64,000 nucleotides of DNA, from the IMG/VR virus record IMGVR_UViG_3300032240_001244, positions 1 to 64,000 of that record. One strand, given 5' to 3'. The translations under genes were made by a program, and so were the position numbers. The stretch's first letter is position 1. Each line of letters starts with the position of its first letter. Below the pieces are notes generated by a model that worked only from the letters and a program-made list of their open reading frames with translations, did not search any database and was not told the DNA's origin. This DNA is from a virus. Positions 35,998-61,822 of the stretch are shown in pieces.

Positions 35998-36248
35998 TGG
36001 ATATAACATATTCTATAACAGAATTTGTATGGGTTAAAAAAGATAATTCTTTTTATGCCGATGCGGATAGATTACATCCCGAAGGAGATTACAAGTGTAC
36101 TTTCCCAAATGGTAGGAAGAAGTTTTATATTAAAAATAATAATACAAAAGGATTTAGAAGATTTATATTAAATAAGGAATGCGGTACCGTTTTACAGTTT
36201 ATAAGTGAAGATGGTATATTATGTAACATACAAACAAAAACAAAATGA
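35997..36248 (+). CDS. Hypothetical protein between groES and groEL
   Basis: 83 aa ORF overlapping stop/start codons on both sides. Confidence 0.6.
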   Translation: MDITYSITEFVWVKKDNSFYADADRLHPEGDYKCTFPNGRKKFYIKNNNTKGFRRFILNKECGTVLQFISEDGILCNIQTKTK

Positions 36249-37897
36249 TAAAGACAGAATTTGGAACAGATCTTAAAAAAAGACTCTTAGACGGAGTAAA
36301 CAAGATTAATGCCAGTGTTTCATCAACACTAGGTCCAGCAGGTAGGAATGTGATCATTAGAGGTTCTGATGGTGCTATTAAGATTACTAAGGATGGTGTT
36401 ACTGTAGCACAATCTTTTACTAAACTTGAAGATCCTATTGAAGATATCGGAGCACAAATGATTAAAAGCGTATCAGTTCGTTCAGCAGATAAAGCTGGTG
36501 ATGGTACAACTACATCAACACTTTTGGCATCTGTAATGGTTAATGAAGGTATTAAAGCTATCACGCAAGGATCAAATGCAGTAGAAGTTAAGAAAGGTAT
36601 TGATAAAGCAGTATCAGTTGTAGTAACTGCGCTAAAAGGAATATCTAAAGATATATCCTCAGAAGATCAGATCAAACAAGTAGCTACAATTTCAGCCAAT
36701 AATGATACTGAGATTGGAACATTAATCGCCACTGCTTTGGATAAAGTAGGTACTGATGGTGTAGTGGCTATTGAAGAATCAAAGTCTGGTGAGACTTCTT
36801 TGGAAGTTGTAGAAGGTATGATGTTTGATAGAGGATTTAAATCTCCATACTTTGTTACAGACAATTCAACAATGCAAGCTGTGTTTGATAAACCATTAAT
36901 TTTCTTGTATGATGGTAGACTTACAAGTACTGCACAAGTGCTCCCTCTTCTTCAAGCAGCTCATGCTGAAAGTCTTCCTTTGCTTATCATTGCTGAAGAC
37001 ATTGAACACGAGGCTTTGGCTATCTTAGTAGTAAATAAAGCAAATGCTACAATCAAAGTATGTGCTGTAAAGGCTCCTGACTTTGGTGATCGTAGAACAG
37101 CAATTCTAGAAGACATTGCAATCCTTACTGGCGGTACTGTTGTATCTCCTACCAAGGGTAATAAGATTGATAAGATGAAGCCTGATGAGTTTAAGCCATT
37201 GTTTGGTAAGGCTCGAATGGTGAATGTATCATCTAAAGATACTACTATCATTGATGGTAAAGGATCAGTAGAAGGAATTGAGCAAAGACTGAACGATATT
37301 AAAACTCAGATTGATATAGCCAAGTCTAACTTTGAAGTTGAAAAGCTTCAAGAAAGATTATCAAAGCTTACTGGCGGTGTTGCTATTATCAATGTTGGTG
37401 GTATGAGTGAGATTGAAATGAAAGAAAAGAAGGATCGTGTAGATGACGCACTACACGCTACTAAAGCTGCCTTAGATCAAGGTATTGTTCCTGGTGGTGG
37501 TATGGCTTTGATTAACTGTATAGAGTTGCTTAAAGAGGCTGTATTGGATTGTGACAACGATGATCAAGAGCTTGGTGTACGAATTGTCACTAAAGCTTTA
37601 TACGCACCGTTTAAAACTATTCTTACCAACGCTGGTATTGAGAATGCTTATGAGATTTTAAGCAGTGTTAAGAGCTATTCTCAAGATGAAGATAACTCAG
37701 ATTGGTACGGATATAATGCTAAGACGGGAGAGATCCAAGATTTTCTACAAGCAGGTATTCTAGATCCAACCAAAGTAACTAGAACAGCTATTGAGAATGC
37801 TGCTAGCGTAGCCGGTACTATTCTAACTACAGAGTCAGTAGTATACTTTACTGGAGATGATAAGAAAGAAGATATAGATTATAGTCAATTCATGTAA
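36245..37897 (+). CDS. groEL: Chaperonin GroEL
   Basis: [50 protein letters not shown]. Confidence 0.97.
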
Positions 37898-54462: not shown

Positions 54463-54481
54463 ATATTTATATATATCTTTG
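54450..54481 (+). promoter_or_regulatory. Host-type promoter with nested TATTTATA, upstream of lipoprotein and tmRNA
   Basis: TTTG 54450-53, 20 nt spacer, TATCTTTG 54474-81; TATTTATA 54464-71. Confidence 0.65.
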
Positions 54482-54501: not shown

Positions 54502-54696
54502 ATGAAAAAAGCATTTATTATTTTTTTGTTATCTTTGTTTGTAGTATCCTGTGGAGGATCTAATGAAAGTAAACCTGTAGAAGCTACATATGCACCAGTA
54601 GGAGTTGATAGTTCAAATATACTACCTCCACTTACGGATAGTGCTAAGATTGAATTGAATGGAGAAAAACCAAAGCCACAGTTGAACGAGAATTAA
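54502..54696 (+). CDS. Small lipoprotein
   Basis: MKKAFIIFLLSLFVVS-C lipobox. Confidence 0.7.
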   Translation: MKKAFIIFLLSLFVVSCGGSNESKPVEATYAPVGVDSSNILPPLTDSAKIELNGEKPKPQLNEN

Positions 54697-54793
54697 AAAT
54701 AAGGGCCTAACCGGTATCGATTCGTAATCGGAGGGTAGTACCACACGCAGAGATAAGTACTAGATCTCTTTAAACTCTGTACAAAATATAAAC

Positions 54794-54865
54794 GACGAAA
54801 TGTCTACTATGACCTTCGATGACCTTATGGCCTTCGTTGGTGCCGATGAAGCAACATTTGCTTAG
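54794..54865 (+). other. tmRNA tag reading frame (A)DEMSTMTFDDLMAFVGADEATFA*
   Basis: ATAAAC|GAC resume context, TAG at 54863-65; exact resume codon inferred. Confidence 0.7.
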
Positions 54866-55092
54866 TCCGCCGAGGTGTCTACAACCTCGCTTCAAACAAA
54901 GTGGAACACAGAGTTTCCCCGATCGACTCTTTAAATAAGGACTGGGGTGGTGGAAAGCTGTCTCCGGACAACCCCTTACTGATCAGCTTGCAGATCAAAA
55001 CTACGGTGCAGATGACGGGGGATCTCCCTCTTGATTGTCAGTACTAAGCGTGTGATATGCTGGTATTATTGTTCATTACGAAGACGTGGGTT

Positions 55093-55370
55093 TGTGGAAT
55101 CGGACCCATCTAGTAGGAATACTAGATTAAAAACTGGATGAATTGCTGGAACTCCTATGACATAGGACAATCAGCAGCCAAGCCTAAAGTACACTTTAGG
55201 AAGGTTCAACGACTAGCGGAGAGATAAAGTTCTCTTAATAACCGCACTAGCGTCCAGCACCCAGATCGGGTGATGATATAGTCTGATCCTCTTGGTAACA
55301 AGAGTTGTAGTTCTTTACGAGGCTGTCTATGAAATCTAAAGTTTCTGGATCTAACAAAAGAATACCAGTG
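55093..55370 (+). mobile_element. ORF-less group I intron (278 nt, IA-like) in tmRNA T-loop
   Basis: P AATTGCTGGAA, Q AATCAGCAGCC, R GTTCAACGACTA, S GATATAGTC; P1 GGGTT/GACCC with U-G at the 5' splice site; P3 CTGGATG/CGTCCAG; P8, P9 with GNRA loop; terminal G at 55370. Confidence 0.93.
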
Positions 55371-55421
55371 CGAATCCCACTAGGTCCACTTAAAGGTTTA
55401 GGTTAGGATTATGGTTAAAAC

Positions 55422-55452
55422 GAAGGGGGGTTTCTACCCCCTTTCTCTTTTT
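55422..55452 (+). terminator. Intrinsic terminator after tmRNA
   Basis: GAAGGGGGG-tttcta-CCCCCTTTC then T-rich tract. Confidence 0.8.
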
Positions 55453-61748: not shown

Positions 61749-61822
61749 GGACTTATAGCTCAGTCGGTTAGAGCATCTGACTCATAATCAGAGGGTCCCT
61801 GGTTCAAGCCCAGGTGAGTCCA
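61749..61822 (+). tRNA. tRNA with CAT anticodon, probably Ile2 (lysidine) rather than Met
   Basis: GGACTTA/TGAGTCC acceptor, GCTC/GAGC D-stem, TCTGA-CTCATAA-TCAGA, CCTGG-TTCAAGC-CCAGG; no initiator features; CCA not encoded. Confidence 0.92.

Follow-up and report, generated by a model that had tools for sequence, protein, structure and literature searches.

A phage tmRNA gene very probably split in its T-loop by a group I intron that has lost its endonuclease

Does a phage genome carry a tmRNA gene that is hidden from gene finders by an intron in its T-loop? The question is raised by positions 54703–55388 of the window, the whole 64,000-nt stretch of DNA analyzed here, which is taken from a virus record of IMG/VR (87,181 bases, classed as linear, approximately 51% complete by CheckV estimate). 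The locus is very probably a one-piece phage tmRNA (ssrA) gene split by a mobile group I intron that has been stripped of its endonuclease and is proposed to be removed by splicing. ARAGORN reported no tmRNA in the intact window or in the intact segment 54600–55500, and the tmRNA families of Rfam 15 gave no match to the intact region even at E ≤ 10, as anticipated by a sequence-only reading of this DNA, according to which standard finders would probably miss the gene. With positions 55093–55370 removed in silico, ARAGORN did call a tmRNA, 409 nt long, from 54703 onward and with a tag of 23 codons, and the tmRNA scaffold with the alanine G3-U pair that the same reading had described was indeed present.

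On the in silico spliced sequence, ARAGORN placed the 5′ exon at 54703–55092 and the 3′ exon at 55371–55388, both on the plus strand. The 5′ exon comprises the 5′ strand of the acceptor stem (54703–54709), the tag frame and pseudoknot region, the 5′ strand of the T-stem (GUGGG, 55086–55090), and the T-loop bases UU (55091–55092). The 3′ exon comprises the T-loop bases CGAAU (55371–55375), the T-stem strand CCCAC (55376–55380), the acceptor strand UAGGUCC (55381–55387), and the discriminator A (55388); it is identical in two related contigs described below, G001 and L143. As read from the sequence, GGGCCUA (54703–54709) pairs with UAGGUCC (55381–55387), the G3-U pair included, and once the exons are joined the T-arm reads GUGGG-UUCGAAU-CCCAC. 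The tRNA-like domain accordingly comprises a G3-U acceptor pair, a T-arm, and a discriminator A; CCA is absent from the 3′ end of the gene.

A degenerate search pattern for the tag peptide yielded three viral contigs, two of which, L143 (68,168 bases) and L142 (174,437 bases), carry natural intron-less alleles. The former contains the same tmRNA gene with no insert and is called directly by ARAGORN; both of its flanks align collinearly with those of the window at approximately 80% identity, and its 5′ exon is 94.9% identical to that of the window over 392 columns. The latter is a more distant intron-less copy, for which ARAGORN also calls a tmRNA. The empty site of L143 reads ...GACGTGGGTT/CGAATCCCACTAGGTCCAC (also given as GGGTTCGAATCCC; slashes mark junctions throughout), with the junction GGGTT/CGAAT, and the intron boundaries are therefore exact: by comparison with this allele, the insert of the window is precisely 55093–55370 (278 nt), and neither boundary can be shifted, since the bases flanking it differ. 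The junction predicted from the window itself, GTGGGTT/CGAATCCCAC, was exactly that of L143. Scored on these natural intron-less alleles and not on the spliced window sequence, the tmRNA covariance model (RF00023, cut-off 47) gave 67.4 bits for L143, over model positions 1–374, and 56.8 bits for L142. Presence and absence of the intron are a polymorphism among these phages.

The tag reading frame (54794–54865, plus strand; ARAGORN) consists of 23 codons followed by a stop, (A)DEMSTMTFDDLMAFVGADEATFA, and resume codon, open tag frame, and stop are all present; ARAGORN labels it 'tag not identified'. The same peptide was given by ARAGORN in four contigs (window, L142, L143, and G001), but 13 of the 23 codons were imposed by the search pattern, and part of the tag conservation in L142 and L143 is thus built in. 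Outside the forced codons, the tag frames of the window and L142 show two differences, both synonymous. The tag ends in TFA, not ALAA; tag lengths elsewhere are 33 residues in a megaphage discussed below and 15 to 29 residues in other phage tmRNAs that lie beside the endonuclease family. With a long tag ending in this way, the fate of tagged proteins may therefore differ from the textbook case.

An RNA that titrates the SmpB of the host or retargets tagged proteins, with the intron as a passenger or a release timer, is unlikely, even though it would accommodate a 23-residue tag without an ALAA end. A search for an SmpB gene (PF01668) gave no match in the approximately 51% complete record of 87,181 bases, which also fits such a role, and in PMC11915505 the tRNA-like-domain-only phage form DS6A is described as inhibiting endogenous tmRNA. 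Against such a role, the intron-less allele matches the entire RF00023 model (positions 1–374), the elements needed for tagging, i.e. resume codon, open frame, and stop, are in place, and the same tag peptide recurs in the four contigs, albeit with the forced 13 of 23 codons. A tmRNA gene proper, interrupted by an intron, is the reading pursued in the following.

The 278-nt insert had been taken for a group I intron on account of its core elements, and Rfam agreed: RF00028 matched 55082–55305 over the full length of the model (positions 1–253 of 253), with a score of 96.3 bits where 50 is the cut-off (E = 1.4e-23). This was one of two matches in a gathering-threshold Rfam scan of the whole window, the other being a tRNA-Met at 61749–61822. 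The intron (55093–55370, plus strand) occupies T-loop subsite 3, between loop bases 2 and 3 (UU/CGAAU). Both splice-site marks claimed for it were found, i.e. a P1 pair between the −1 base U55092 and G55103, and a terminal (omega) G, G55370, at the 3′ end of the intron. The proposed P10 also held, since 6 of 7 positions of the 3′ exon (55371–55377) are pairable, as read from the sequence, with intron positions 55102–55096, a stretch overlapped by the segment GTGGAATCG that had been named for this helix.

The secondary structure was evaluated with an alignment (A1) of the first 235 nt, counted from ten bases 5′ of the splice site, of six subsite-3 introns, namely those of the window, G001, the megaphage locus L001, one Bacteroidales MAG, and two Prolixibacteraceae MAGs. 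RNAalifold predicted 55 pairs, 26 of them with compensatory changes, and recovered P1, P2, P3, P4, P5, P6, P8, and P9. Three of the 55 pairs (columns 1–3 with 208–210) are probably a mis-pairing of the 3′ strand of P7, which RNAalifold cannot place in a pseudoknot. In the P1 hairpin (55086–55109; Rfam alignment and RNAalifold, columns 6–12/19–25), exon positions 55086–55092 and intron positions 55093–55094 pair with the guide at 55101–55109, and all six sequences preserve the U-G pair at the splice site. The ribozyme body spans 55108–55304 (Rfam alignment and RNAalifold on the six introns) and contains P2 (55108–55115/55120–55127), P3 (55134–55140/55251–55257), P4 (55144–55149/55171–55176), P5 (55153–55155/55165–55167), P6 (55177–55189/55194–55205), P8 (55258–55262/55268–55272), and P9 (55289–55294/55299–55304), all on the plus strand like P1. 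Two further plus-strand elements, P7 (55211–55215/55279–55283; GACUA/UAGUC), which is invariant across A1, and an extra hairpin between P7 and P3′ (55216–55245), were read from the alignment and are not predicted by RNAalifold. A hairpin at this place is typical of group I subgroup IA.

The insert had also been described as free of an endonuclease ORF. This is correct insofar as no ORF with a start codon covers the window intron and no intact homing-endonuclease gene lies inside it; it overlooks that the minus strand (55250–55348) keeps the last 33 codons of such a gene, corresponding to residues 166–198 of a G001 protein, with 94% identity. G001, an IMG/VR contig of 78,363 bases, has the same tmRNA gene and the same intron, 98.8% identical to that of the window over 253 nt, with a clean extra 520 nt after the equivalent of 55345 (a 520-column indel in alignment A3). 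This insert encodes, in antisense orientation, most of a 198-aa ORF that continues into the ribozyme core and matched phrog_3322 'endonuclease' (6.6e-23) and phrog_3118 'HNH endonuclease' (8.7e-13); a Pfam search with the protein returned nothing at the curated cut-off. The remaining 165 codons are absent from the window owing to a 520-nt deletion between 55345 and 55346, and searching the window record with the G001 endonuclease retrieved residues 166–198 only. The remnant includes the conserved C-terminal segment of the endonuclease family (alignment of 17 members). Given codons 166–198 and the 520-nt indel relative to G001, the window intron is therefore, on this comparison, a deletion derivative of an endonuclease-bearing intron and not a form that always lacked one.

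The introns of the window and G001 differ at 3 of 253 positions and the 5′ exons at 21 of 392 (Fisher p = 0.005), the contrast being weaker when the whole intron is compared with both exons (6/278 versus 21/411, p = 0.07). The 5′ exon of G001 is nearer to that of intron-less L143 than to that of the window, and in the 3′ flank the window resembles L143 better than G001 does. Such a mosaic of exons and flanks would fit homing with co-conversion, short of proving it. A homing cycle of gain, fixation, endonuclease decay, and loss was reportedly formulated by Goddard and Burt in 1999. Closely related phages present here a natural series in which homing can be studied in an RNA gene: L143 and L142 represent the empty site, G001 the intron equipped with its endonuclease, and the window the intron after deletion of the endonuclease. 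They depart from that cycle in that the endonuclease gene is antisense to the intron and overlaps its core, and in that its relatives are mostly free-standing beside tmRNA genes.

In the proposed mechanism, a precursor would be transcribed as far as a terminator-like hairpin of 10 pairs with a T run (55422–55445, plus strand; terminator scan), which starts 34 nt past the tmRNA end and is also kept in G001 and L143 (alignment). The promoter scan found no sigma-70-type promoter upstream of the tmRNA gene on the plus strand. The small ORFs flanking the gene (window 54503–54696 and 55476 onward) open with lipoprotein-like signal peptides, MKKAFIIFLLSLFVVSC... and MKSLMLAVIVLIGMVSC..., respectively. 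As the upstream ORF stops 6 nt 5′ of the tmRNA and a TATCTTTG box lies at 54474–54481, the tmRNA may be co-transcribed with this ORF. The intron would then fold, so that the end of the 5′ exon and the U-G wobble are held in P1 while P10 brings the 3′ exon into line, and would remove itself by two guanosine-dependent transesterifications. Joining GUGGGUU to CGAAUCCCAC would enable the T-arm and the acceptor stem to form, after which host enzymes would trim the ends and add CCA, and alanyl-tRNA synthetase would charge the G3-U acceptor. The mature tmRNA would work with SmpB, presumably that of the host. We infer both self-splicing and this order of processing from the architecture of the locus, and trans-translation with the phage RNA would then depend on splicing.

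Three metatranscriptome runs (X15, X16, and X17) and one DNA run (X3) were evaluated as contigs, and none of these contigs bridged 55092/55371. The RNA-library contigs contained pieces of the tmRNA bodies of relatives, none of them over a splice site, and one 150-nt contig identical to 55173–55321, which shows no more than the presence of intron sequence in that library. Even an exon-joined contig could not have proved splicing, since such a sequence is also found in the DNA of intron-less alleles.

In the homing-cycle model, endonuclease loss precedes intron degeneration, and the deleted endonuclease could accordingly mark a decaying gene, in which the intron splices poorly and the phage tmRNA is a pseudogene or a trace-level product. 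The missing spliced RNA among the RNA-library contigs would agree with decay, as would an A instead of a G in the megaphage homologue L001 where the canonical junction needs the last intron base. We nevertheless regard it as very unlikely: the core helices and splice-site marks of the window intron are all intact and the full Rfam model is matched, the intron has remained 98.8% identical to the endonuclease-bearing copy of G001, and the exons have kept acceptor, T-arm, and tag frame. The preferred reading is a functional gene with a splicing intron, the latter being a selfish mobile element of a tmRNA T-loop lineage that would be common to phages and Bacteroidota. Stripped of its endonuclease, the intron would be able to persist; since the antisense endonuclease gene is lost, it would spread only with an endonuclease supplied in trans.

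The large ORFs of the window lie densely packed on the plus strand (ORF map), and 7 of 10 window proteins tested gave PHROG matches, one of them weakly, including tail sheath, ribonucleotide reductase, DNA polymerase, and GroEL. The PHROG matches and the IMG/VR record therefore identify the window, at the level of gene content, as DNA of a large tailed phage; the phage is from freshwater. The GroEL-type chaperonin is full-length (window 36245–37897; phrog_5725, 6.1e-148). That the intron or the tmRNA lies outside any phage genome, owing to an assembly artefact or misbinned bacterial DNA, is scarcely credible: the record is a linear, about half complete metagenomic contig, but the same junctions occur in the independent contig G001 from another sample, the DNA run contains all sampled words, and the tightly packed ORFs of the plus strand include the phage-type genes named above. 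The tail sheath is nearest to that of a Microcystis phage (39%), followed by Flavobacterium phages (37%), and the motif TAnnTTTG occurs 103 times versus 83 ± 9 expected; neither settles the host, for which the relatives of the intron point to Bacteroidota.

The best match in the phage collection was LR756501.1, a 735,411-bp uncultured phage, in which, at locus L001, a partial tmRNA match (21.1 bits, below cut-off) leads directly into a group I intron that scores 96.1 bits and occupies the same subsite. ARAGORN calls the megaphage tmRNA only with the intron removed, and none in the intact locus. At L001 1727–1745, just 7 nt lie between P9 and the 3′ exon. If the canonical T-loop junction is used, the intron ends in A instead of G; alternative sites, after GGGUUU and after ...CACG, obey both splice-site rules but give a 6-base T-loop. 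A search for relatives of the megaphage tmRNA tag returned 0 stretches.

A looser T-loop screen was too permissive (at least 1619 candidates) and was replaced by a stricter, ARAGORN-verified screen, which gave two positives, the window and L001, among 122 core-motif instances. When viral contigs were searched with the junction pattern GGGTTTG..AATCGGACC, tmRNA context was found among 21 stretches only at L009, a truncated view of G001; L001 came from the phage collection and not from these 21 stretches. The scan of bacterial genomes gave 21 stretches with five tmRNA contexts, all from Bacteroidota: three subsite-3 introns (L151 from Bacteroidales, L152 and L153 from Prolixibacteraceae) and two subsite-7 introns (L144 and L161 from Flavobacteriaceae). 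In the set gathered, these Bacteroidota tmRNA introns are the nearest to the window intron after the phage copies; that of the Bacteroidales MAG (L151) is 75.9% identical over 203 nt and likewise 278 nt long. A quick, unrooted FastTree analysis of 148 intron cores (approximately 210 columns, sequences gathered with self-chosen patterns) placed 9 of 9 tmRNA introns, four from phages and five from Bacteroidota, in one clade with a support of 96. The 139 other introns, including 123 that phages carry outside tmRNA genes, all fell outside this clade. The tree omits L002, L009, L140, L141, L165, and L194, which duplicate the window and G001 regions or show them truncated, as well as motif instances too close to a locus end.

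Relatives of the G001 endonuclease are encoded at 29 viral loci, 20 of which were scanned with Rfam. At 12 of the 20, a tmRNA gene scoring above cut-off directly adjoins the endonuclease gene. One locus (L167) has a group I intron antisense to the endonuclease gene and flanked by subsite-3 T-arm halves, with no tmRNA call by ARAGORN; three (L169, L181, and L182) gave tmRNA-type matches below threshold, and the Rfam scan found nothing at the other four. In L169 (2955–3327) and L181 (3006–3181), the endonuclease relatives adjoin tmRNA genes of permuted, two-piece appearance; L169 has a permuted tmRNA according to ARAGORN, and the Rfam models tmRNA_permuted and alpha_tmRNA match below their cut-offs. 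The tmRNA match of L182 (1–498), truncated by the start of the locus, takes up 498 nt to cover model positions 18–374; it is unusually long and may contain an insertion of a different type. At five phage loci with tmRNA and free-standing endonuclease genes, GOLLD RNA (RF02032, 316–330 bits) was found on the opposite strand within approximately 2 kb (L171 4418–4832, L172 1657–2066, L173 3894–4307, L174 2429–2836, and L176 3714–4121).

The first tmRNA intron, from Clostridium botulinum, was reportedly described by Williams in 2002 (NAR 30:179, 'invasion by an intron'), and it was the known case to which the sequence-only reading had referred. Like the window insert, it belongs to group I and interrupts the T-loop of a one-piece tmRNA gene; it differs in lying on a bacterial chromosome and, according to PMC11915505, in the main subsite 7. 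That intron-form tmRNA was known is thus right, but the form is far more widespread than one case: the 2025 catalogue lists 883 unique sequences from 21 phyla in four T-loop subsites, with a terminal G in all 883 introns and with all subsite-3 forms from class Bacteroidia (PMC11915505). RefSeq viruses were searched for this catalogue, and a phage intron form is unmentioned in its text. The window gene shares with the Bacteroidia subsite-3 genes the gene form, the subsite (UU/CGA...), the −1 U, and the terminal G (PMC11915505); it differs in its location in a phage, in the 23-residue tag versus GE(T/N)NYALAA in the bacterial genes, and in the antisense endonuclease remnant.

Phage ssrA genes, including those of Bxz1-type mycobacteriophages and Bacillus phage G, were known in 2014 (PMC4131195), and tmRNAs of huge phages have been assigned with ARAGORN (PMC7162821). 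As in these cases, the window holds the phage's own ssrA gene, in a record without an smpB match; unlike it, the standard phage tmRNA genes are uninterrupted and found by ARAGORN, and the word 'intron' is absent from both papers. The psbA intron of Synechococcus phage S-PM2 has a related ribozyme core (75.6% identity over 163 nt), but such introns of phage protein genes interrupt coding genes and lie outside the tmRNA-intron clade. We found no published case of a phage tmRNA gene with an intron, and the sequence lists behind PMC11915505 could hold phage entries. With intron-form tmRNA well catalogued in bacteria, the phage case is a modest extension that implies no new mechanism.

Intron-form phage tmRNA genes are invisible to ARAGORN and Rfam 15, and surveys of phage translation genes therefore under-count such tmRNAs. 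An example is the 735-kb megaphage, which was surveyed with ARAGORN (PMC7162821) and in whose intact locus this program finds no tmRNA. In the intron tree, tmRNA introns of phages and Bacteroidota are intermingled within a single clade, which points to traffic between the phage gene and its host counterpart. Tentatively, phage ssrA genes could serve to shuttle an intron lineage specific to tmRNA, together with the endonuclease family dedicated to it, a possible though doubtful role in which phages would ferry introns from one bacterial ssrA gene to another, the T-arm target being nearly universal. If so, this could explain the confinement of subsite-3 introns to Bacteroidia and their phages, and the endonuclease could be a weapon against intron-less ssrA genes, cutting that of the host or of a rival phage, the phage's own copy being shielded by the intron. 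The main value of the locus lies in the natural homing series and in the link between phage and Bacteroidota genes.
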